Source of the DNA: an uncultured Candidatus Saccharibacteria bacterium
GTDB taxonomy: Bacteria > Patescibacteriota > Minisyncoccia > JAHISW01 > Tagabacteraceae
Assembly: GCA_964601305.1 (NCBI GenBank)
Contig: CAZRMW010000002.1
Location: 3,439-67,438, forward strand
Reading direction: 5' to 3'
Length of the DNA stretch: 64,000 nucleotides
The notes below the pieces were generated by a model, which saw only the letters and a list, made by a program, of their open reading frames with translations, made no database searches and was not told the origin of the DNA. Shown here piece after piece: positions 19,226-54,377 of the stretch (positions are counted from its first letter, which is position 1; every line of letters starts with the position of its first letter). Position numbers and translations under genes: made by a program.

Positions 19226-20322
19226 TATTGTGTCAGTTTTTTTTCAGCTAACTTTAAAAAATTGTTTATTAATTTTGACATTTCTTCTCTAATTTTTTGG
19301 TTTTCCTCTAGAGATAAGATTGTTCGTAGTGGGTCATCCTTAATTTTTTTAATATTTTCATATACTTTTTGTGTTGCTATAAAAAGCTCAACTTCTCTTT
19401 TGTGAATTTCTAAAAAATCAGATGGCACTAAAACTTTTTTCATATTTTTTGCAGAAATTTTGTAGTGTTCTATAAAATCGTCTATTTTTTTAAAATTTTC
19501 TGTTTGTATTGCTTCTTCTAAAATATCTTCTTCTGTTTCTTTGTGTGGTATTTCTGGAATAGCATCACCAACAGCTAATAGATATTTATTTATAGATGCT
19601 GGAGAATTATCTGAAGTAATTTTAAATTCAGAAGCTGGAATTTTTGTATAAAAACCAGATACAAAAGCAAGGAGTCCTTGATTGGTGTCTGAATCTAAAA
19701 GAGCAAAAACATTTTCTGTTTCAATTTGGTCTATTTGGGAAGGGTCTTTTATGTGCGAGCTAATAGTTTGCGCAAAGCTCTGTGTAAGATTTGAGTTTTC
19801 TGAGGCTGTTTTTGTATAAACTGGCGCCTTCTCAGATTTTTTACCGGTGTCTGGATTTGAGAGTGGGTCTAGCGGATCGTACCCAGATTGTGTTTCTTTT
19901 CCATCAGTGTGTCCGTCTTCGTCTGTGTCTGGATTATTTACATCTGTTTTCCAGAGAGTTTCCTCCCAATCTCTTAGACCATCTTCGTCGGTATCTAGAT
20001 TAACTTTTTCAACCATTTTAGGTGTGAGTAGGGCAGAAGTTTTTTCGTAAATTGTTTTTGGCTCTTTGTTTTTTACAAATAAAAACCAGCTTCCTAAGCC
20101 AAAAATGCCCAGCCCAAGCAGGATTACCAAAATAATTATTATTTTGTTTTTCACCCTTTTATTGTACCACTTTTTTATGGCTTTATTGTTGAGTTTTTTG
20201 GGGATAATTATTGTGTATTGACAAAATAAGCAAAAAATGCTTTTATGTGTAGAGAAAACGAGATAAATCTCGCCAGAGGCGAGTAAATTTTTAAAAAATA
20301 AATACAAATTTTTGAAAGCCAC
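19225..20322 (-). CDS. membrane-anchored protein with thrombospondin type-3-like Ca-binding repeats (first gene of the T4SS-like operon)
   Basis: TM segment IIIILVILLGLGIFGLGSWFLF followed by DTDEDGLRDWEE...NPDTDEDGHTDGKE (DxDxDG repeats). The annotated GTG start at 20322 and the first ~55 codons are doubtful; the real start is probably near 20160. Confidence 0.5.
   Translation of the reverse strand: MAFKNLYLFFKNLLASGEIYLVFSTHKSIFCLFCQYTIIIPKKLNNKAIKKWYNKRVKNKIIIILVILLGLGIFGLGSWFLFVKNKEPKTIYEKTSALLTPKMVEKVNLDTDEDGLRDWEETLWKTDVNNPDTDEDGHTDGKETQSGYDPLDPLSNPDTGKKSEKAPVYTKTASENSNLTQSFAQTISSHIKDPSQIDQIETENVFALLDSDTNQGLLAFVSGFYTKIPASEFKITSDNSPASINKYLLAVGDAIPEIPHKETEEDILEEAIQTENFKKIDDFIEHYKISAKNMKKVLVPSDFLEIHKREVELFIATQKVYENIKKIKDDPLRTILSLEENQKIREEMSKLINNFLKLAEKKLTQ
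20265..20284. repeat. hairpin repeat AAATCTCGCCAGAGGCGAGT, copy 1
   Basis: Identical 20-mer at 58495-58514; stem CTCGCC/GGCGAG. Lies in the leader of the T4SS-like operon. Confidence 0.6.
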
Positions 20323-20364
20323 GCCGCAAATTGTATATGCAGGCGGGCAAGGAGGTGTGAAATG
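20316..20364 (+). promoter_or_regulatory. conserved GC-rich leader element, copy 1 (AAGCCACGCCGCA ... TATATGCAGGCGGGCAAGGAGG)
   Basis: Near-identical to 45475-45527; ends in the extended SD AAGGAGGTG 8 nt before the ATG at 20362. Confidence 0.55.
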
Positions 20365-21123
20365 ACTTTTAGGTGGCAGGTTATACTGGCTATTTTCTTT
20401 CTGTCGTTAATGGCTGTAATGATGCTTGGTGGCTGTGCTGCAACTAAAATCCAAAAAGAGGCGTATGTTGGGAGTCAAAAAGCTGCTGAAATGTCGGCTA
20501 AGGTGGCTGCCATAAACAATGCAAAATTGGCTGGGGTTAATCCCGATTGGATTGCTGATCGGTTGGACATTCCAAGAGAGGCTATTAATTCTGGTGGAGG
20601 CAACGAATTTATGCCCGTGGTTTCTTCTTCAAGAAAAGCCTTTATGGGGCCTGTAAGAGAGGAGTTTAACAATATCACCCGAGGAGCTCTCGGCTCTGTG
20701 GGCGCTGCAGCTATTGGTGGATATTTCTACGAAAGGGGCCAAAAGGTTGCCGGAGAGTACTACGAAAAAGGCCAGGCGGCACGCCGTCCGTCTAATTTGT
20801 CGGTAAATACTGGAATAGGTGTAAGTGCTGGAATTTCTCCCAGTGTTACCAGTGGACAGTCTGGAGGCACAACAGTCTCAACTCAACCAACAGCACCTGT
20901 TGTTGTAAGTGTCCCAGGTTCTGGCACTAACACAACAAGCTCCAGTAATAATTCGTCTTCGACCACAACATCATCGACGACATATTATTACAACACTCCT
21001 TCTACAACGACTGGTCCTGGTGTTGTCATTTACAACCCGCCTATAGTGGGGCCCACACCAACGAGCCCGTCAACCACAACTCCAAGCGGTGGCCCTGCGG
21101 GAGGTGCAAATCACGAAGATTAA
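20362..21123 (+). CDS. lipoprotein with Ser/Thr-rich C-terminal region
   Basis: Lipobox MMLGGCAAT, a Gly-rich middle section, and an S/T/P-rich C-terminus; GC content is noticeably higher than the flanks. Confidence 0.6.
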   Translation: MTFRWQVILAIFFLSLMAVMMLGGCAATKIQKEAYVGSQKAAEMSAKVAAINNAKLAGVNPDWIADRLDIPREAINSGGGNEFMPVVSSSRKAFMGPVREEFNNITRGALGSVGAAAIGGYFYERGQKVAGEYYEKGQAARRPSNLSVNTGIGVSAGISPSVTSGQSGGTTVSTQPTAPVVVSVPGSGTNTTSSSNNSSSTTTSSTTYYYNTPSTTTGPGVVIYNPPIVGPTPTSPSTTTPSGGPAGGANHED

Positions 21124-27619: not shown

Positions 27620-27671
27620 ACGAACAGAAAATAAAGATAAACTTTGATATAAAGGATAAGGGAGGAAAATT

Positions 27672-27926
27672 ATGTATTCGGACAATCCAGCTTTCAAAAA
27701 AGGTCCTTACGGACAGTGCCCTGATTGTCGCTGGGTAGACTTAGAACTATCTGGCTTTGAAACAAAATCCTTGAGATGCCCAGTATGCAAAGAAAGGTTT
27801 GAGGCATCCGGGGAGGCCGAGTACCTCAAAAAATTGGCAAAAGAAAAGAGGGAAAAGGCGACTAAAAATTTTTTCAAAAACGCCTGGGGTATGCCCGGTC
27901 AGAAAAGGGTACAGCCTTCCCCTTAG
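27672..27926 (+). CDS. small zinc-ribbon protein, paralog 1
   Basis: 84 aa with CPDC...CPVC; SD AAGGGAGG; 33 nt identical to paralog 2. Confidence 0.55.
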   Translation: MYSDNPAFKKGPYGQCPDCRWVDLELSGFETKSLRCPVCKERFEASGEAEYLKKLAKEKREKATKNFFKNAWGMPGQKRVQPSP

Positions 27927-27952
27927 TATTCCCGTCCAGGGGGTAACATAAC

Positions 27953-28004
27953 ATCGAAAAGCCTTATGTACTATGCCAAGCGCGGCAAACATAAGGCTTT
28001 TTTA
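27953..28004. repeat. ~50-nt terminator-containing repeat, copy 1 (ATCGAAAAGCCTTATGTACTATGCCAAGCGCGGCAA...AGGCTTTTT)
   Basis: Second copy at 29124-29175, about 90% identical; hairpin plus T-run. Confidence 0.65.
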
Positions 28005-28073
28005 TTTGACTTTTTAGGGTCATTTTGCTTGAATGGTACTAAATTTGAAAATTTAAGAAGGAGATTGAAAAAT

Positions 28074-28328
28074 ATGGACGCAAATAATCCAGCTCTTAAG
28101 TCAGGTCCTTATGGGCAATGTCCTAAATGTCCCTGGACAGATTTAGAATTATCTGGTTATGAAAAAAAATCTTTAAGATGCCCAGTATGCAAAGAAAGGT
28201 TTGAGGCACATTGGGAAAAAATAGAAAAAGAAGAAGAGGGTGCAGAAGAAGCTGCTTGGGAGAAATGGATGTGGGCGAACAAGCCCTGGCTTCATAAATT
28301 AAAAAATCCCAAAAAGAAAAAACCTTAA
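28074..28328 (+). CDS. small zinc-ribbon protein, paralog 2
   Basis: 84 aa with GPYGQCPKCPWTDLELSGYEKKSLRCPVCKERFEA, parallel to paralog 1; SD GAAGGAG. The ORF-track start at 27966 runs through the terminator repeat and is spurious. Confidence 0.55.
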   Translation: MDANNPALKSGPYGQCPKCPWTDLELSGYEKKSLRCPVCKERFEAHWEKIEKEEEGAEEAAWEKWMWANKPWLHKLKNPKKKKP

Positions 28329-28348
28329 TAAAAAAGGGAGAAAATAAT

Positions 28349-28573
28349 ATGAATGAAAAAACAGAAATTGATGTTAGTGATTTGAAAGAATTTGTTCAGC
28401 TTACTTATGGTGGAATTAATAGTTTCAAAGACAGTTTAGCTTATTGGAAGCATCATCTGGAATACATAGACGATTCTGATAGTGTGCATAACAAAGAAGA
28501 GGTGGTAACAAGGATTAAAGAGATTGAGTTTTCAATAGAAAAAGCAGAAAATCTAATTAAAAAATATTCTTAA
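28349..28573 (+). CDS. hypothetical small protein
   Basis: 74 aa; SD AAGGGAG; own composite terminator (28596-28642) containing CCCCGCCGAGCGGGG. Confidence 0.45.
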   Translation: MNEKTEIDVSDLKEFVQLTYGGINSFKDSLAYWKHHLEYIDDSDSVHNKEEVVTRIKEIEFSIEKAENLIKKYS

Positions 28574-28715
28574 TTCGTTTTCGGGCGATATTGTAGAGCC
28601 TCATAAACCCCGCCGAGCGGGGTAAATATGAGGCTTTTTTATTGACTTAGAAACACAGAATTGTTAGTTTGTAATAAGAAAAACCTTGAAATATAACCCA
28701 AAAAGGAGACAACCA

Positions 28716-29102
28716 ATGAAAGGAATGGAAGATTTGATTAAAGTCCAAGAACAAATATTAACAGCTCAAAAAATATTGATAAAGCAAAATATTGAGGCAC
28801 AGCAGGTTCGTTTGTGGTCTGAGTATGGTGAAGAATTAGAAAGAATTAAGCAGGATAAGGTGAAAGACATAGAAGAAGGTGGGCGTGTTGAACAAGTCTT
28901 AGTGTTTTTACTTAATCTTTTTTTGGAGGTTCACGATGCTCAAGAAAGTTTATCCATAAGCTCCAAAGAAGAAAGAAAGTTTTTTGAAAGAAACTTTGCT
29001 CTTTGGATGAATCTACCAGCGATGAAAAAAATGTGGAAAAGAGTAAGACTCTGGAAGCATAAAGAGCATGTAAAATTTGTAGACAGTTTAATTAAAAAAT
29101 AA
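28716..29102 (+). CDS. hypothetical helical protein
   Basis: 129 aa from the ATG that follows SD AAAAGGAGAC; followed by repeat copy 2. Confidence 0.45.
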   Translation: MKGMEDLIKVQEQILTAQKILIKQNIEAQQVRLWSEYGEELERIKQDKVKDIEEGGRVEQVLVFLLNLFLEVHDAQESLSISSKEERKFFERNFALWMNLPAMKKMWKRVRLWKHKEHVKFVDSLIKK

Positions 29103-29123
29103 ATCAATTTACCTTAGGGTGAA

Positions 29124-29175
29124 ATCGAAAAGCCTTATGTACTATGCCAAGCGCGGCAAGTATGAGGCTTTTTAT
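29124..29175. repeat. ~50-nt terminator-containing repeat, copy 2
   Basis: See copy 1; its 3' half resembles the terminator at 28596-28642. Confidence 0.65.
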
Positions 29176-30701
29176 TTTTCTTTTGGCCTGTATTGCAATG
29201 CCTCGAAAATGTGTTTTTCTAAAATATCTTTGTTTTCATCAAGGTCCGCAATTGTGCGGGCTAATTTTATTACTCTATGGTACGCACGCGCCGAGAGATC
29301 GAGCTGTTTGGCAGCTTGGTCTAACGTTTCACGTACAGTATTTGAAATGTTTACAAATTTTTTAAGCTCGCGCACCCCCATTTCGCTATTTGTTATTGTT
29401 GATGTATCAGAAAATCTTTTCTTCTGAATTTCTCTGGCTTTTATAATTCTTTTTCTAACTTCACTTGAAGACTCGGAAACAATTTTGTCGTTTGAAAGTT
29501 TTTCAATTTCTATTTGAGGAACTTCTAACCACAGATCTACTCTATCTATAATTGGTCCAGAAATTTTTCTTTGATATCTTAAAAGTTCACCCTGTGAACA
29601 AATACAATCTTTTACAGTTGAAGTTAGGTTGCCGCAGGGGCATGGGTTCATAGCACAAAGTAAAATAAATCTTGCTGGAAACTTTAAACTACCACGAGCC
29701 CTGGAAATTGTTACTACACCGTCTTCTAATGGTTGACGCATAGCTTCGATGACCCTTTTTTCAAAGAGAGGGAATTCATCAAGAAAAAGAACTCCACGAT
29801 GACTTAGACTTATTTCCCCTGGTTTTGGCCATGTGCCACCACCAACAAGGGCAACATAAGAAGATGTGTGGTGTGGTGTCCGTAGGGGTCGATCTGCGCA
29901 ATATGGCCCGTCTAATGCGCCAGCTATACTGTGAATTGTTGTAATTTCTAAGGCCTCATCGAAAGATGGGGGAGGTAAAATAGCAGAAAACGCTTTTGCA
30001 AGCATTGTTTTTCCTGTGCCTGGAGGACCAGACATTGCTATATTGTGTCCGCCGGCTGCTGCTATCTCTAAACCTCTTTTGGCCGTTTCTTGACCTTTTA
30101 TGTCTGAAAAATCTAAGAGCCCACCCAGAAAATCTTCTGGTTTCATTTTTGTAGGAGATTGTTTTTCTAAAACCTCATCTTCATGGAGGTGTAAAATTAA
30201 ATCTTTTAGGCTGTTTATTCCATAAACATCAATATCTTTTATGAGGGCAGCTTCTTTGGCGTTTTCTTTTGGTAGATAAATTTCTTTAAAGCCTTTTTCT
30301 TTGGCAACTCTTGCAAGACTTAAAACTCCTTTTATTGGTCTAAGTGTACCATCAAGCCCGAGTTCTCCGAGAAAAATTTTTCCTTCAGTAGAAAAATGTA
30401 TTTGATCAGATGCTAAAAGAAAAGAAAGCGCTATAGCTAAATCAAAAACCGGTCCTTCTTTTTTAAGATCGGCCGGGGCTAGAGATATAGTTACTCGATA
30501 GTTTCCTTTTTGTGGTGAATCAAATCCATTGTTTTTTATAGCTGCAGAAACCCTGTCTTTTGCTTCGTCTACTGCCTTATCGGCGAGGCCTACAATAGAA
30601 AAACGATGAAGACCTTTTGTAAGGTCTATTTCTACATCAATGATTTTTCCATCTAACCCAAATGTTTGAGCAGAGTATATCTTTTTTGCCATTAGAGACA
30701 A
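29172..30701 (-). CDS. comM: YifB/ComM-family Mg-chelatase-like AAA+ ATPase
   Basis: N-terminal Lon-like domain, AAA+ core (Walker A GPPGTGKTMLAK, Walker B VLFLDEF), and the C-terminal ChlI-like region. Confidence 0.85.
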   Translation of the reverse strand: MSLMAKKIYSAQTFGLDGKIIDVEIDLTKGLHRFSIVGLADKAVDEAKDRVSAAIKNNGFDSPQKGNYRVTISLAPADLKKEGPVFDLAIALSFLLASDQIHFSTEGKIFLGELGLDGTLRPIKGVLSLARVAKEKGFKEIYLPKENAKEAALIKDIDVYGINSLKDLILHLHEDEVLEKQSPTKMKPEDFLGGLLDFSDIKGQETAKRGLEIAAAGGHNIAMSGPPGTGKTMLAKAFSAILPPPSFDEALEITTIHSIAGALDGPYCADRPLRTPHHTSSYVALVGGGTWPKPGEISLSHRGVLFLDEFPLFEKRVIEAMRQPLEDGVVTISRARGSLKFPARFILLCAMNPCPCGNLTSTVKDCICSQGELLRYQRKISGPIIDRVDLWLEVPQIEIEKLSNDKIVSESSSEVRKRIIKAREIQKKRFSDTSTITNSEMGVRELKKFVNISNTVRETLDQAAKQLDLSARAYHRVIKLARTIADLDENKDILEKHIFEALQYRPKEK

Positions 30702-42763: not shown

Positions 42764-43573
42764 ATGAAATCTAAAAAACAAAAAAATATAAAACCTATAG
42801 TTTTTCAAGATAAAGAAGTTAGACGAGTTTGGGACGAAAAAAAAGAAGAATGGTATTTTTCAATTATTGATATTATTGAAATTTTAACCGAAAGTCCGAG
42901 ACCAAGAAAATATTGGAATGCTTTGAAAACTAAATTAAAAAAAGAAGGCTCTCAGTTGTCCCAAGATGTGGGACAACTGAGAATAAAATCAGGAGATGGA
43001 AAACTTTATTTAACAGATGTTGCTGATACAAAAACTATTTTTAGGCTTGTTCAATCAATTCCAAGTAAAAAAGCAGAACCATTTAAATTGTGGCTTGCTA
43101 AAGTTGCTAATGAGAGAATAAATGAAATTTATGACCCTGAAATTGCTATAAATAGAGCAATTAAGATTTATCAAAGAAAAGGTTATGATGAAAAATGGAT
43201 AAATCAAAGATTAAAATCTATTGAAATCAGGAAAGAACTTACAGATGAATGGAACGAACGAGGAGTAAAAGAAGGGCTTGAGTATGCTATTTTGACAAAT
43301 GAAATTTTAAGATCTTGGAGTGAAATGGATACTTTGCAATATAAAAAGTTTAAAGGATTAAAAAAGGAATCACTAAAAGACAATATGTCTAATTTAGAAT
43401 TGGTTTTAAACATGTTAGCGGAAACTTCAACAACTGAAATTAGTAAAAAAGAAAAACCAAAAGATTTTAAGGAAAATAAAAAAGTAGCAAAAAAGGGTGG
43501 GAGTATTGCCCAAAAAGCAAAATTTGAACTAGAAAAAAAATTAAAACGGAATGTTTTAAAAGGCAAAAAATAA
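42764..43573 (+). CDS. Bro-N / DinD-like (phage antirepressor-type) domain protein
   Basis: The N-terminal region IVFQDKEVRRVWDEKKEEWYFSIIDIIEILTES fits the BRO-N pattern. Start taken at the internal Met to avoid overlap with rnhA. Confidence 0.45.
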   Translation: MKSKKQKNIKPIVFQDKEVRRVWDEKKEEWYFSIIDIIEILTESPRPRKYWNALKTKLKKEGSQLSQDVGQLRIKSGDGKLYLTDVADTKTIFRLVQSIPSKKAEPFKLWLAKVANERINEIYDPEIAINRAIKIYQRKGYDEKWINQRLKSIEIRKELTDEWNERGVKEGLEYAILTNEILRSWSEMDTLQYKKFKGLKKESLKDNMSNLELVLNMLAETSTTEISKKEKPKDFKENKKVAKKGGSIAQKAKFELEKKLKRNVLKGKK

Positions 43574-43586
43574 ATTCTATAAAATT

Positions 43587-44045
43587 ATGAATAAAAAAAT
43601 GTACAGAGCTTTTATAGAAATTCCAAAAGGAGATGATAGAAGAAGGCATATGAAATATGATAAAAGTGGCTTGATTGACTTAGGACCGATTAAAGATGTT
43701 ATTCCTGTGAATAATGGTATTATGCCCATTCATTATGGCTATGTTTTAGATACGATCAACAAAAAAGAAGACCCTCCTGAAGAATTAGATGTTTTAATCT
43801 TTTCAAAAAAACAATTTCAGATATCTGATGTTATAAAAATTAAACCAATCGCAATAATAAAAAGAGAAGACAATGATCACAAAATAGTCGCAACGGAAGA
43901 AAATGATTTAAGGGGTTGGAAGGAGATTCATGACAACGAAAAAGAACTAATTAAAAGCTATTTTGGTTACAAATCCAAAATTGTGAGTATAGAGGGAGAA
44001 AAGGAAGCTATTGATTTGATCGAAAATTCGTTGGTTGTTTCATGA
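43587..44045 (+). CDS. ppa: inorganic pyrophosphatase (family I)
   Basis: FIEIPKGDDRRRHMKYDK…YGYVLDT…DPPEELDVLIF matches family I PPase metal-binding motifs. Confidence 0.7.
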   Translation: MNKKMYRAFIEIPKGDDRRRHMKYDKSGLIDLGPIKDVIPVNNGIMPIHYGYVLDTINKKEDPPEELDVLIFSKKQFQISDVIKIKPIAIIKREDNDHKIVATEENDLRGWKEIHDNEKELIKSYFGYKSKIVSIEGEKEAIDLIENSLVVS

Positions 44046-45490
44046 ATTCTAAGCATTTTTTAATTTTTATAATTTTCTTTGGAGTCGGTGTTTTTGCTGG
44101 CTCATTTGTTAGTACGAGCTTATCTTTTTATTTGGGCTTGTTTTTCATTCTTCTTGCTATAGTTTTTCAACTAGTGAGGTTCAACCTCACTAGTTTGGTA
44201 TGGGTGCTAGGGGTGTTTGCGGTGGGGTGCGGTCTTGTCTATTTTGGTTTTGTGGCAGAGCCGGCGGATATGTCTTTTTTGGAAAGTAAAATTGGAGAAA
44301 GAGTTGTTTTGGAGGGTGTGGTGATAGACGAGCCAGATGAAAGAGAAAAATATACAAGATATGTTTTAGAGATAGATAAAGGGGTTAATGTTTTACTTAC
44401 TGCAAGACATTATCCAAAGTTTAAATACGGAGACAAGGTTGAAGTGAAGGGTGTTTTGAAGAAACCAAGTAATTTTAGTGAGTTCGACTGGAGGGCATAT
44501 TTAGCTAAGGATGATATTTATTTTGAAGTATTTTATCCAGAGATAAAATTTTTGTCTGCGCGTCAGGGGTCGGAAATTAAGTATCAACTTTTGGCTTTCA
44601 AGAAAAAATTATTAAACAACGTTTCGGCAGTAATTCCAGAACCTCACTCTGCACTTTTGGGAGGGCTAACTTTTGGCGCCAAGCAAAGCATGCCAAAAAG
44701 TTTGCTCGAAGATTTTAGAAGTACTGGGGTAATACACATAGTAGTGTTGTCTGGCTATAACGTAACAATAATTGCGGATTTTATAATGCGCATTTTTTCT
44801 TTTTTGCCATTTTATTTTGGTATTGGGTTTGGTGCGTTGGGAATACTTGCTTTTGCCATTATGGCTGGAGCTTCAGCGACCGTGGTGCGTGCTTCTATTA
44901 TGGCGATACTTGTGCTCTTGGCGCGTGCGACTGGAAGGATTTATGAAATTACAATTGCTCTTTTTGCAGCTGGATTTTTAATGGTGCTTCATAATCCAAA
45001 AATAATTCGGTTCGATTCTTCTTTTCAGCTTTCTTTTTTAGCAACTATGGCATTAATTTATGTGGCGCCTCTTGTAGAAACAAAACTAAAATTTTTGCCT
45101 AAAAAACTTCAGATTAGAGAAATTGCTACAGCTACTGTTTCTACACAGATTTTTGTGTTGCCACTTATTTTATATAAAATGGGTTTGTTTTCTGTTGTGA
45201 GCTTGCCAGTGAACTTGCTGATTTTATTTTTTGTACCGGCGACGATGTTTTTTGGGTTTATGACAGCAGCGACAGGTTTTCTTTCATATTTTATAAGCTT
45301 ACCTTTTTCTTGGATAACTTATGGGTTGTTAAATTATGAATTAAAAATTGTAGAAATTTTTGCAAGTCTACCTTTTGCATCTTTTGAAATAAGCAATTTC
45401 CCACTTTGGCTAATGTTGACAATCTATGTTTTTTACGCTATTTTGATTATCAGATTGAGAAACAAAAACCCAAAAAGCCACGCCGCATAA
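44042..45490 (+). CDS. comEC: ComEC/Rec2 competence channel protein (DUF4131 plus competence domain; lacks the MBL domain)
   Basis: N-terminal OB-like DUF4131 region, then a polytopic competence domain (HSALLGGLTFGAKQSMPKSLLEDFRSTGVIHIVVLSGYNV). Confidence 0.8.
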   Translation: MNSKHFLIFIIFFGVGVFAGSFVSTSLSFYLGLFFILLAIVFQLVRFNLTSLVWVLGVFAVGCGLVYFGFVAEPADMSFLESKIGERVVLEGVVIDEPDEREKYTRYVLEIDKGVNVLLTARHYPKFKYGDKVEVKGVLKKPSNFSEFDWRAYLAKDDIYFEVFYPEIKFLSARQGSEIKYQLLAFKKKLLNNVSAVIPEPHSALLGGLTFGAKQSMPKSLLEDFRSTGVIHIVVLSGYNVTIIADFIMRIFSFLPFYFGIGFGALGILAFAIMAGASATVVRASIMAILVLLARATGRIYEITIALFAAGFLMVLHNPKIIRFDSSFQLSFLATMALIYVAPLVETKLKFLPKKLQIREIATATVSTQIFVLPLILYKMGLFSVVSLPVNLLILFFVPATMFFGFMTAATGFLSYFISLPFSWITYGLLNYELKIVEIFASLPFASFEISNFPLWLMLTIYVFYAILIIRLRNKNPKSHAA

Positions 45491-45527
45491 TCTAAATATA
45501 TGCAGGCGGGCAGGGAGATCTAAAATG
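45475..45527 (+). promoter_or_regulatory. conserved GC-rich leader element, copy 2
   Basis: AAGCCACGCCGCATAAT…TATATGCAGGCGGGCAGGGAG…AAATG; overlaps the comEC stop codon and ends at the ATG of the small ORF. Confidence 0.55.
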
Positions 45528-45704
45528 CCCGAAGAAGAAAGATATACTTCAAAAGTTTGCAGAGAAAGAAGAGAGATTTTAGTATTTTTAAATGAAATAG
45601 GTCAGGATCTGAAGGATGTGAAAGTAGTTCCCTTTAAAGAAAAAATTGGTGTACATACCCTTGATAAATACGAAGTTATCTACGAAGACAAAGAAGAGAT
45701 ATAA
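45525..45704 (+). CDS. hypothetical 59-aa protein
   Basis: Sits directly behind the conserved leader with SD GGGAG; below the ORF-track cutoff. Confidence 0.4.
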   Translation: MPEEERYTSKVCRERREILVFLNEIGQDLKDVKVVPFKEKIGVHTLDKYEVIYEDKEEI

Positions 45705-45716
45705 AGGGGGTGTAAC

Positions 45717-45899
45717 ATGGATCAATTTGTACCAATGTTGCTTGATTCTCTTTGGGGAAAACTATTCTTTTCCTTCTTTGCTCTTCTTGGAGTTTTGTTT
45801 TTTTCGATGCTTGTATTTTCTGATTTTTGGATCAAAAAACTTCAGTTATCGATTGATTTTCTAGATAGTTGTATAAAAAAGCTTGAAGAATATAAATAA
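45717..45899 (+). CDS. hypothetical small membrane protein
   Basis: 60 aa with one TM; SD AAAGGGGG; a terminator hairpin follows at 45953-45985 (GCCCGATC/GATCGGGC). Confidence 0.4.
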   Translation: MDQFVPMLLDSLWGKLFFSFFALLGVLFFSMLVFSDFWIKKLQLSIDFLDSCIKKLEEYK

Positions 45900-46011
45900 A
45901 TATTGTCTTACTAAAAATAATGGTAGGGAAAAAGTAAAAAGTCTCTTGGTTATATAGCACAAGCCCGATCGGATGGTCGGGCTTTTATTTTTGTGCTAGT
46001 TTGTTTTTAAG

Positions 46012-46869
46012 ATGATAGATTTTTTGAAGAAAAATTTTGCTTACATTTTTGTTGGTGCGCTATTTTTAGGAGCTGTTTTTGTTTGGTTCATAGTTTTTAC
46101 AGAAGACAGAAGTGGGATAGAAGTAAGTTTTTTAGATGTTGGTCAGGGCGATGCAGTTTTTGTACAAGCTGAAAATGGCAACCAAGCTTTGATAGACGGC
46201 GGGCCAAACAAAGCTATCTTACAACAACTTGCGAGAGTGATACCATTTTATGATAGATCGATAGATATACTCATACTATCTCATGCACACAGCGACCATA
46301 TTGAAGGGCTTATCGAGGTGCTTAAAAGATATAAAGTTGGCATGGTGGTGGAGCCATGCTTGGATTACAAATCTGCAGAATATAGAGAATTTTTAAATAT
46401 TATAGAAAGTAAAAAAATTTTAAGGGTTTGTGGAAGTGGAGGGCAAAAAATAAATCTTAGTGAGGGTGTTTATTTTGATGTATTGCTTCCAGTAGGAAAT
46501 GTAGAAGGAAGAAAAGTTCATGATGCTATGTTTGTAGCAAAACTAAATTATAGAAAAACTTCTTTTTTGTTTACAGGGGATATGGAGAAAAACCAAGAAA
46601 AATATTTAGTGAGTGTTTCAGATAAAGATTTAAAAAGCAATGTGCTAAAGGTGGGGCATCACGGATCAGATACATCTAGCTCTGAAATATTTCTAGGCTT
46701 CGCTAGTCCAGAGTATGCAATAATTTCTTCTGAAGAAGGAAATAAATTTGGCCATCCACATAAAGAGACTCTAGAAAAATTAGAAAATTTTGAAATAAAT
46801 ACTTTAAGAACAGATAAGCTGGGAACAATAAAAATCTGGAGTGACGGAGAACAAGTTTTTATAAAATAG
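46012..46869 (+). CDS. ComEC C-terminal metallo-beta-lactamase domain protein (separate gene)
   Basis: N-terminal TM, then LDVGQGDAVFV…ILSHAHSDHIEGL (MBL HxHxDH) as in the ComEC C-terminal domain. Confidence 0.75.
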   Translation: MIDFLKKNFAYIFVGALFLGAVFVWFIVFTEDRSGIEVSFLDVGQGDAVFVQAENGNQALIDGGPNKAILQQLARVIPFYDRSIDILILSHAHSDHIEGLIEVLKRYKVGMVVEPCLDYKSAEYREFLNIIESKKILRVCGSGGQKINLSEGVYFDVLLPVGNVEGRKVHDAMFVAKLNYRKTSFLFTGDMEKNQEKYLVSVSDKDLKSNVLKVGHHGSDTSSSEIFLGFASPEYAIISSEEGNKFGHPHKETLEKLENFEINTLRTDKLGTIKIWSDGEQVFIK

Positions 46870-46923
46870 TATAAAAAACAAAAAGCGACGGGGAGCCCGT
46901 CGCTTTGAATTATTGATAATTAA

Positions 46924-47493
46924 TCAATAGTTTTTTGTTTTTTCTTGTAAAGCTCTTAAAACTTTTATAAAATTTTTACCTTCTATTTCTTCAGGAAACT
47001 GTTTGCTGTTTACAAAAACAATTTTTCTTCTCATGCCAAGTTTTTCTATAAGCATAAAAACCGCACCGTTATCGAAATTTATTCCTCTGCTGTCTGGTAC
47101 ATACCAGATGTGGATTTCATCAGCATCAAGCATCGCATAGAAATTTGTGTTTAAAATGGTGGTGCCAATAGGGTCTGTTTTTTGATGTGGATTATCTCTA
47201 AGTGGCCAGAAAACTTCATTTCCTTCTTTTTCAAGTTTTTTCACATAAGCACGGACTTTATCTATTTCATCTTGGCTTATAATATTATTGCTCCGTACTG
47301 GGCTAATAAAAAATACTCTTGTTTTTCTGGAAGCTCTTTCTTTTTCTTGTTTTTCTTTTGCCATTTTGATCATGGAATTTCTTAGTGGCTTCAGTTTTTC
47401 ATGAGTTTGTTGTTCAGCAGATTTTAACCAATCTGGCCTTGTGTCTTCTTTACCGTCATCTATCAAAAAAACTTGCCATATTTTCTTTCCCAT
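46924..47493 (-). CDS. hypothetical protein (possibly nucleoside 2-deoxyribosyltransferase-like fold)
   Basis: 189 aa; weak pattern similarity only. Confidence 0.3.
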   Translation of the reverse strand: MGKKIWQVFLIDDGKEDTRPDWLKSAEQQTHEKLKPLRNSMIKMAKEKQEKERASRKTRVFFISPVRSNNIISQDEIDKVRAYVKKLEKEGNEVFWPLRDNPHQKTDPIGTTILNTNFYAMLDADEIHIWYVPDSRGINFDNGAVFMLIEKLGMRRKIVFVNSKQFPEEIEGKNFIKVLRALQEKTKNY

Positions 47494-51802: not shown

Positions 51803-51928
51803 TTTGTTTGCTAATACTTGGTTTTTTTGTTTATTTTTTGTTATAATTCTAAGGAAGAAAGCGCAGAGAGTCGATTTTAGTTTCCGCCTGAGGCGGACAA
51901 GTTTATATAATTAATTTATTTTTTTAAT

Positions 51929-52300
51929 ATGTCTTTTATGGATAAAATTAAAGGTGTTTTTAGTGGAGCTAAAAATGAAGATACTTCTATGGGTGCAGGT
52001 GATGCAGGCATGCCACCAGTTGAACCTGCTTCACCAATGGGCGAGCCTACAACATCGGATGTTCCGGAAGTTCCAGTTTCAGAGCCAATGGCTACCCCAA
52101 CTCCAGCAGAGCCTGCTTCGCCAATGGGCGAGCCAGTAGCTGCTCCAGAGCCGGAGCCTATGGCTAGCCCAACTCCAGCTGAGCCTGAAGCTCCAGCTGT
52201 AACTCCCGAGACACCCCAGCCACAACCTTCGGATGTAGGCGGGCAGGCAGTTGAGGGTGGAGAAGAAAAGCCAGTAGAAGGTGGTGGAATGGCTTTGTAA
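51929..52300 (+). CDS. Pro/Ala/Glu-rich repetitive protein
   Basis: PAEPASPMGEP repeated; GC-rich; followed by terminator 52321-52362. Confidence 0.4.
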   Translation: MSFMDKIKGVFSGAKNEDTSMGAGDAGMPPVEPASPMGEPTTSDVPEVPVSEPMATPTPAEPASPMGEPVAAPEPEPMASPTPAEPEAPAVTPETPQPQPSDVGGQAVEGGEEKPVEGGGMAL

Positions 52301-53607: not shown

Positions 53608-53954
53608 GGGAGTGATCGGCTTTGATAAGAAGCTTCTTTTAAAACAGTGCATATCGAGTATTCTAAAATCTCGTTAAACTTTTAGAGCTTCAAATAAATG
53701 CAAATTTATTTAAAACTCCAGCTTTAGCTTACGCTTAAAGCTCGTTCCCTTACTCATTCTCAATAAGTAAGGAAGAACGTCATCATTGAGATAGATAATT
53801 TTTATTGGGCTTTGAAAAATTATTGAAACAAAACAAAGCCAAAGCTAAGAACTTTTTGCTCGGTTTTTATTTCTTAGTCTAAACAAACCAAGCTAAATAT
53901 GTAGATACTTTTTAAAAATCTTTTTACACGGCGGTTCGATTCCGCCCACTTCCA
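53608..53954 (+). ncRNA. ssrA: tmRNA (transfer-messenger RNA)
   Basis: 5' GGGAGTG pairs with 3' CACTTCC including G3:U70; T arm GGCGG-TTCGATT-CCGCC. PK1 region CAGTGCATATCGAG resembles E. coli GGUGCAUGCCGAG. Tag ORF gca aat tta ttt aaa act cca gct tta gct tac gct taa encodes ANLFKTPALAYA (53700-53738); the GCTTTAGC core is conserved. CCA is not encoded. Confidence 0.85.
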
Positions 53955-54377
53955 CAAAATATTAATTCCCGAAGCGTTAGCTTTGGGGATTTTGATTTTG
54001 TAGGTTGGTGGCGGAATTGAACAGGCGGAGGCGGGCACCGTCGCCGACTAGCGAAGCTAGTGGCGCGCGGTCGCCGAGCCCGGGGAGGAAGTTCTTAGTG
54101 AAGACAAGTGCAAAGCACGAAGTCTGAGCTTAGAAACTTGACCCTCGATTCCGCCCACTTCCACAAAATATTAATTCCCGAAGCGTTAGCTTTGGGGATT
54201 TTGATTTTGTAGGTTGGTGGCGGAATTGAACAGGCGGAGGCGGGCACCGTCGCCGACTAGCGAAGCTAGTGGCGCGCGGTCGCCGAGCCCGGGGAGGAAG
54301 TTCTTAGTGAAGACAAGTGCAAAGCACGAAGTCTGAGCTTAGAAACTTGACCCTCGATTCCGCCCACTTCCACAACT
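53937..54377 (+). repeat. 209-bp tandem repeat (2.1 copies) beginning inside the last 18 nt of ssrA
   Basis: CGATTCCGCCCACTTCCACAA recurs at 53937, 54146 and 54355 with identical 188-bp GC-rich spacers. Confidence 0.9.

Follow-up and report, generated by a model that had tools for sequence, protein, structure and literature searches.

A two-gene ComEC of the Patescibacteria type whose genes are parted by a lineage-specific spacer with two orphan reading frames

ComEC/Rec2 of Bacillus subtilis (TIGR00361; structures 30bt and 9vc6) carries three modules in one polypeptide: an OB-fold domain (DUF4131), the transmembrane Competence channel and a metallo-beta-lactamase (MBL)-like nuclease domain. 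In this study, we analysed the comEC locus in a 64,000-nucleotide stretch of DNA (contig CAZRMW010000002.1, positions 3,439 to 67,438), hereafter called the window, from an uncultured Candidatus Saccharibacteria bacterium of the Patescibacteria, or Candidate Phyla Radiation (CPR). The genome has a low GC content of 33%. The window resembles the B. subtilis system in that the three modules occur in the same order with the metal-binding motifs of the nuclease intact. It differs from fused ComEC/Rec2 in that two polypeptides are encoded, and the nuclease has its own start codon and membrane anchor. The two genes, here called comEC-N and MBL, are separated by a 521-bp spacer.

Unfused ComEC is already known from the CPR. 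In the sections consulted of Meheust et al. 2019 (PMC6744442), CPR ComEC is described as lacking a fused MBL domain, and those sections do not mention an adjacent MBL gene. The Competence-domain protein of the window, from a Patescibacteria genome, agrees with the form described there. The present analysis goes beyond those sections in showing the MBL partner adjacent, often overlapping, and in the window set apart by an orphan cassette of 521 bp. Pimentel and Zhang 2018 (PMC6299819) reported that ComEC is variable in its domains, which were counted protein by protein. By such a count a neighbouring stand-alone MBL protein would appear as a loss, whereas in the window the domain is encoded next door. 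In Piscirickettsia salmonis, comEC is disrupted by insertion sequences (PMC12955456). The window is similar to P. salmonis in having foreign DNA within the comEC locus, but it has no transposase, both reading frames are complete and the split is older than the inserted DNA. No explicit description of an overlapping two-gene comEC arrangement was found in the literature searched. The arrangement can nevertheless be recognised in public databases, where the name 'ComEC/Rec2 family competence protein' has been given to several MBL proteins that stand alone.

The domain content of the two genes was determined from profile and structure searches. ComEC-N matched PF13567 (DUF4131) at residues 26-169 (E 2.7e-19) and PF03772 (Competence) at residues 209-473 (E 6.2e-46) in Pfam, covered positions 77-409 of the TIGR00361 ComEC/Rec2 model in NCBIfam, and aligned with residues 142-476 of the solved ComEC structure 30bt_A. 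The MBL protein gave a Lactamase_B match, covered TIGR00361 positions 418-663 (E 3.3e-40), and had as its top PDB matches the beta-lactamase-like domains of ComEC, namely 9ic4_A (E 7.8e-30) and residues 524-789 of 30bt_A. Since the two proteins align to successive parts of ComEC, the gene pair is collinear with a fused ComEC, without any missing part. Neither half reached the whole-protein cut-off of TIGR00361, which is 190 bits; the two ORFs (open reading frames), 521 bp apart, scored 81 and 137.9 bits. In an alignment with 11 homologues, the conserved MBL motifs D42, QGD47, H91xHxD95H96, D190, H216H217 and H248 were all present, and every residue invariant among the homologues, including HxHxDH, was kept in the window protein. 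Because the MBL gene is intact with all catalytic residues, it is probably still in use. The break between the genes falls in the linker that separates the channel from the nuclease. ComEC-N ends in a basic tail, and a short basic stretch precedes the N-terminal hydrophobic helix of the MBL protein (residues ~10-30), so the cut fits a cytoplasmic loop, where we infer that it lies.

To place this arrangement, related loci were collected. A genome-collection scan with ComEC-N gave 11 Patescibacteria loci, and look-ups of close MBL homologues gave 8 more records representing 6 further distinct loci, a total of 17 distinct related loci, all from Patescibacteria/CPR assemblies. ComEC-N reached its stop codon at a length of 452-503 aa in 17/17, and the MBL domain, wherever it was found in these loci, was a separate gene of ~285 aa with its own start and N-terminal helix. 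Such a gene lies downstream on the same strand in the window and in 14 related loci (L001-L003, L006, L007, L009, L010, L137-L144); in L004, L005 and L008 no MBL gene was within 6 kb of ComEC-N. The best 120 MBL homologues, down to 51% identity, were likewise all of stand-alone size (227-302 aa, mostly 280-290 aa). Since 17 of 17 loci are split and the MBL homologues stand alone, the fission, or a never-fused state, is old and CPR-wide. Judged from these sequence comparisons, the two-gene ComEC of the window is the ordinary ancient form of the CPR/Patescibacteria, that is, the already-known unfused type.

The commonest state among the loci examined is an overlap. In seven loci (L003, L137, L139, L141, L142, L143 and L144) MBL begins within the last 20-26 nt of comEC-N (overlaps of 26, 26, 23, 26, 20, 20 and 23 nt), always at the same frame offset. 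Given this constant offset, an indel of a single base could convert the fused and split states into each other. The overlapping loci share the block RecJ - RNase H - comEC-N - MBL - (PaaX_M-like) - NDK - RNase J. The window differs from them by its spacer with two ORFs and a terminator. In more distant lineages other genes intervene. A gene for an Fe/Mn superoxide dismutase on the opposite strand separates the halves in L007, L009 and L010, which belong to Saccharibacteria and another lineage; the gene is conserved at this place, a stable and different way of separating the pair. A cytidine deaminase gene lies between the halves in L006.

The original prediction had proposed that comEC was bisected by the insertion of a ~520-bp cassette. 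Much of its description holds: the gene with DUF4131 and the Competence domain ends at 45490; a separate MBL gene with its own N-terminal helix follows; a leader element sits at the stop codon of comEC-N and contains its TAA (45488-45490); a 59-aa ORF, a 60-aa membrane ORF and a terminator lie in the gap; both ORFs are complete, so that comEC is present in two intact pieces, which probably work together; and the DNA between them is lineage-specific inserted material. The bisection itself did not survive comparison of fused and split states. The relatives already have two genes in the same arrangement without the leader and without the cassette, and the cassette therefore parted two genes that were already separate. 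A recent mobile cassette that cut a previously fused comEC would account for the absence of cassette and hairpin from all relatives, for the hairpin overlapping the comEC-N stop and supplying the last codons, and for the second hairpin copy 25 kb away. In all related loci, however, comEC is already divided at this break point and MBL has a start codon and a membrane anchor of its own, and the cassette is without a transposase, terminal inverted repeats or a clean target-site duplication. We consider such a bisection exceedingly unlikely. The duplicated 3' end of comEC-N is degenerate over ~20 nt and is not a clean target-site duplication. With regard to an insertion sequence, a miniature inverted-repeat transposable element, a repetitive extragenic palindrome (REP), a palindrome-associated transposable element (PATE) or an integron cassette, searches of the window matched neither a transposase nor an integrase. 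Two further readings were rejected. An integron attC site would need a GTTRRRY/RYYYAAC core and an integrase, both of which are lacking. Hairpin copies acting as att sites at the ends of a 25-kb island would conflict with the RNase H - comEC-N synteny within that stretch, which relatives share.

The split could also be only apparent, produced by a frameshift or a chimera in sequencing or assembly. Apart from the general risk carried by metagenome assemblies, nothing speaks for this. The halves are 521 bp apart and not one base, the break point is identical throughout the relatives, three contigs assembled from independent samples match the window at 100% identity across the locus, and two more agree with it at 98-99% where they overlap it, with zero differences within the spacer. 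Identical contigs occur in samples SRR8062331 and SRR9166041. Since these five assemblies reproduce the locus, the sequencing frameshift that the original prediction had allowed for is excluded, and an artefact of any kind has next to no probability. In a search for signs of coding within the spacer, the strain variants L014 and L015 showed no differences there. These same-species populations show a 15-nt in-frame deletion polymorphism at window positions 45019-45033, in the Competence domain of comEC-N. L015 carries a 19-nt version of this deletion, which would shift the frame and may be an assembly error.

The spacer (45491-46011) contains, in order, the hairpin, a Shine-Dalgarno (SD) sequence and orf59, a second SD and orf60, and the terminator (Table 1). 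Its last nucleotides, GTGCTAGTTTGTTTTTAAG, are a degenerate match to the coding 3' end GCTATTTTGATTTTGAAAT of overlapping relatives such as L137, and equivalent relics are present in L001 and L002. L001 has a spacer of only 110 bp with no ORFs. In a neighbour-joining tree of ComEC-N, the window and L001 are sisters with 78% bootstrap support, and both have spacers. L002 is placed elsewhere in the tree, and its spacer of 1.2 kb contains a 71-aa zinc-ribbon-like ORF and the PaaX_M-like gene usually located after MBL; from its sequence this spacer seems to be a separate local rearrangement. The comEC junction has thus come open on more than one occasion. Aligned locally, the spacers of the window, L001 and L002 showed no homology past the ~20-40 nt relic, with scores at or barely above shuffle maxima. 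Either the window acquired its cassette after diverging from L001, or L001 has lost it.

Table 1. Features of the comEC locus and of other regions discussed in the text. Coordinates are window positions unless a related locus is named.
Feature	Coordinates	Strand	Description	Basis
PaaX_M/Cas2-like gene, 186 aa	36030-36590	+	~10 kb from the MBL-NDK block
Second hairpin/ribosome-binding-site leader	20313-20364	+	Immediately precedes a 253-aa lipoprotein-like gene (20362-21123); the intergenic region is divergent
Bro-N domain protein gene; inorganic pyrophosphatase gene	42785-43573; 43587-44045	+	Between RNase H and comEC-N
comEC N-terminal gene (ComEC-N), 482 aa	44042-45490	+	OB-fold/DUF4131 and transmembrane Competence channel	Pfam, NCBIfam
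Hairpin leader	45474-45517	+	GC-rich bulged hairpin and SD GGGAG (45513-45517)	Sequence, folding
orf59, orphan 59-aa soluble protein	45525-45704	+	Predicted beta-alpha-beta-beta fold	ORF list
orf60, orphan 60-aa protein	45717-45899	+	One long helix; own SD (AAGGGGG)	ORF list
Intrinsic terminator	45955-45997	+	Inner stem 45961-45984, T-run 45985-45994, outer stem AGCACAA/TTGTGCT	Terminator scan
Relic of ancestral comEC-N 3' end	45993-46011	+	Directly upstream of the MBL start; no SD
comEC C-terminal gene (MBL), 285 aa	46012-46869	+	N-terminal membrane anchor and metallo-beta-lactamase-like nuclease domain
Orphan gene, 189 aa	46924-47493	-	Between MBL and NDK; host-like codon usage, no family match
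Fe/Mn superoxide dismutase genes	L007 7403-7954; L009 2180-2770; L010 7851-8444	-	Between the comEC genes

The two short ORFs look like real lineage-specific mini-proteins, as far as composition and structure predictions go. Both follow a well-spaced SD, between them occupy the spacer, and show codon usage like that of the host. The codon log-likelihood per codon in frame is 0.405 for orf59 and 0.284 for orf60, and the other frames give -0.6 to -1.1. Compared with the benchmark, in which 60-codon pieces of real genes score 0.487 +/- 0.163 and the off-frame 95th percentile is 0.203, both fall inside the real-gene distribution and above the off-frame percentile. In orf60, residues ~14-36 form a hydrophobic, transmembrane-like stretch. 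AlphaFold2 models from the single sequences had a mean predicted local distance difference test (pLDDT) score of 79 for orf59 and 89.6 for orf60, the latter with a predicted helix at residues 4-59; such predicted confidence is unusually high for orphans. In 5.8 billion protein clusters neither ORF had a homologue, the matches being the ORFs themselves and one spurious repeat-protein match (E 1.9e-4), and a search of 1.84 billion representatives without a word index found no homologue of orf59. Neither had a match at or above the curated cut-offs of Pfam or NCBIfam, nor any match in PADLOC, and their PHROG matches were weak and to families of unknown function (E 0.002 and 0.68). The predicted fold of orf59 had no significant match in the PDB; the best were generic PII/CutA/Alba-like half-ferredoxin folds (E >= 0.15). 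With regard to a toxin-antitoxin or anti-phage defence pair, neither orf59 nor orf60 matched a known toxin, antitoxin or defence family in these searches.

These results bear on another explanation, in which the spacer would be non-coding, the ORFs would have arisen by chance, and hairpin and terminator would form a regulatory spacer, a processing site or attenuator, that sets the ratio of channel to nuclease. The lack of homologues of either ORF in the searches above agrees with it, as do the ORF-free 110-bp spacer of the sister L001 and the two strong RNA structures. On the other hand, the in-frame codon scores of the two ORFs are those of coding sequence while their remaining frames are strongly negative, a well-spaced SD precedes each of them in a spacer that they fill, and their single sequences are predicted to fold with confidence (pLDDT 79 and 90). 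A purely non-coding spacer is thus unlikely in our judgement.

The hairpin leader overlaps the end of comEC-N. Its arms are GCCACGCCGCA at 45477-45487 and TGCAGGCGGGC at 45501-45511, and the comEC-N stop codon starts the loop. The 5' arm forms the last four codons of comEC-N and encodes the final residues KSHAA of a longer tail: the C-terminus, ...IIRLRNKNPKSHAA*, extends 4-5 residues beyond the ends of the relatives. The leader folds with -19 kcal/mol (z -2.96). Both strands fold equally well, so folding cannot separate a function in RNA from one in DNA; the hairpin has no T-run and is therefore not an intrinsic terminator. A covariance model found two real copies in the window, 20313-20364 and 45472-45527 (84 and 76 bits), and its next match, at 15.8 bits, covers the ordinary ribosome-binding-site (RBS) part only, so that the 64-kb window held no diverged copies. 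The arms of the two copies are 100% identical, and the loops differ by a 4-nt indel and substitutions, a pattern that points to constraint on the stem more than to recent copying alone. In both places the element stops 1-2 nt short of an SD, and a start codon follows ~13 nt beyond it. A third copy at 52211 was rejected as a weak 63% match inside a coding region. Rfam returned only tRNAs and the transfer-messenger RNA (tmRNA) of the window at the gathering score, and in a permissive search of 45400-46050 the only family touching the element was snoRNA U54 (45408-45479; 20 bits against the 40 needed, E 0.63). A metagenome scan with the pattern CCACGCCGCN{6,30}GCAGGCGGG, of which the AT-rich loop and flanks are not part, matched at least 120 loci; among those listed all were in genomes of 53-77% GC, and they were discarded as chance matches in GC-rich coding DNA.

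Our best guess is that the hairpin would act as a 5'-leader stem-loop that stabilises or marks the mRNA, or as a processing site that parts the comEC-N message from the cassette. Alternatively, it could mark one end of a small REP/PATE-like mobile element that is non-autonomous and depends on a Y1/HUH transposase, or be a recombination site, with the cassette as cargo. The imperfect palindrome with single-base bulges, the identity of the arms beside differing loops, and a Y1_Tnp gene in the same neighbourhood of the relative L137 would suit such an element. Against this, the 64 kb contain just two copies, which share their placement with respect to SD and start codon; tblastn found no Y1 transposase homologue in the window; the hairpin that closes the cassette has an unrelated sequence; and no copy was found beyond this site in 24 related or same-species loci, nor did the full arms match any viral contig. 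A mobile or recombining element of this kind seems quite improbable, and the mobility raised in the original prediction is not supported within the 64 kb covered. In addition, short GC-rich hairpins with CGCC-N3-GGCG cores were seen at 20269-20283, near the 20313 leader, and at 51866-51884, which precedes the gene at 51929; such structures may be widespread in the intergenic regions of this genome.

At the other end of the cassette, the inner stem of the terminator has 10 pairs and is followed by TTATTTTTGT. It folds with -23.7 kcal/mol (z -5.0), and 0 of 200 shuffles were as stable. The MBL gene begins 18 nt past this strong terminator and lacks an SD, in the window and in the relatives, and a promoter scan found no promoter-like site on the plus strand at 45444-46945. 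Since a strong terminator is combined with no promoter-like site and no SD, expression of MBL would occur by read-through and an SD-independent start, uncoupled from that of the channel and lower. Judged from these signals, the MBL protein is probably made at a lower level than the channel and out of step with it.

Taken as a whole, the locus is best explained as an old CPR two-gene ComEC whose overlap was opened and whose spacer holds an orphan cassette, and we hold this with a probability of about 85%. We propose the following model. ComEC is here an old two-gene system of a channel subunit and a separately membrane-anchored MBL-type nuclease subunit, encoded by neighbouring genes. In the usual state the MBL start lies inside the end of comEC-N without an SD, and translation would presumably proceed by coupling. 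In the lineage of the window and its sister L001, the overlap was pulled apart, leaving the degenerate old 3' end of comEC-N before MBL. The window spacer carries a small self-contained expression unit with hairpin and RBS, two orphan mini-proteins and a terminator. The two ComEC subunits would assemble in the membrane as in the fused protein, and MBL would be made by terminator read-through and SD-independent initiation. Of this model, the sequence data show how the genes are arranged, that this arrangement is old, the relic, and two ORFs that are orphan and coding-like in composition; how the subunits assemble, how translation is coupled, what follows for expression and what orf59, orf60 and the hairpin may do are inferred. 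A more far-reaching version would regard the spacer as an add-on to the split ComEC, orf59 and orf60 as new accessory or regulatory uptake subunits, the leader as a new cis-regulatory RNA that co-regulates the envelope (through the lipoprotein gene at 20362) and competence, and the terminator as a device tuning nuclease dosage independently of the channel. This is very improbable; so far neither the two ORFans nor the two-copy hairpin points to a new system.

Natural transformation of Saccharibacteria depends on comEC (PMC10633639), and the environmental Saccharibacteria loci L009 and L010 have the split form. From these two observations together, a two-piece ComEC is very likely functional. 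Several points weigh against the explanation preferred here. Transformability was found in a cultivated Saccharibacterium and the split form was read in the environmental loci L009 and L010, which are different genomes. The coding status of orf59 and orf60 is argued from codon statistics, SD sites and single-sequence structure predictions, and both the coupling in the relatives and the read-through in the window are deduced from sequence alone. As to the direction of evolution, fission of a fused gene and a never-fused pair both stand as readings. Finally, a single origin of the spacers of the window and L001 is not certain, the tree being a simple neighbour-joining tree with moderate support.

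The spacer is not the only junction of the conserved block that gained lineage-specific genes here. RNase H and comEC-N abut in L001, L137, L139 and L142, and another gene intervenes in L141 and in L143/L144; in the window the Bro-N and pyrophosphatase genes occupy this position. The Bro-N protein matches the PADLOC candidate defence family PDC-S13 (E 3.7e-122) and phrog_15286 (E 7.6e-110). Between MBL and NDK, where the window has an orphan gene on the minus strand, relatives have nothing or other genes (PaaX_M-like, Y1 transposase). The PaaX_M/Cas2-like gene lies between MBL and NDK in L139, L142 and L143/L144 and between comEC-N and MBL in L002. In the window it is ~10 kb distant, which points to local rearrangement of the block.

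Two other repeat regions were seen in the window. At 53936-54375 the last ~22 nt of the tmRNA gene (TCGATTCCGCCCACTTCCACAA) are present three times, parted by two 100%-identical units of 209 nt. Each unit has a terminator-like hairpin and a GC-rich segment (~55% GC in a genome of 33% GC) with a very strong fold (z -6.2), and the 5' end of this segment pairs with the tmRNA-like 3' end. The units matched no Rfam family; they could be att-site repeats that integration left at the 3' end of the tmRNA, or else tandem duplicates of a tRNA-like RNA. At 27665-29180 a 55-nt terminator-like element occurs three times (27953, 28590 and 29124; 73-91% identity), and a 142-nt repeat occurs at 27665 and 28067 with 80% identity. 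This suggests a small array of duplicated short genes with similar 3' ends.

In conclusion, these findings leave the understanding of competence and of CPR biology unchanged. They bear on how the CPR form of ComEC is read: a CPR ComEC that apparently 'lacks' its nuclease has usually not lost it, the nuclease being a separate membrane-anchored protein encoded next to the channel. Surveys that count domains per protein would therefore under-report the ComEC nuclease of the CPR. The loss of the presumed coupling would make the window a natural experiment on the question whether nuclease synthesis has to keep step with that of the channel.

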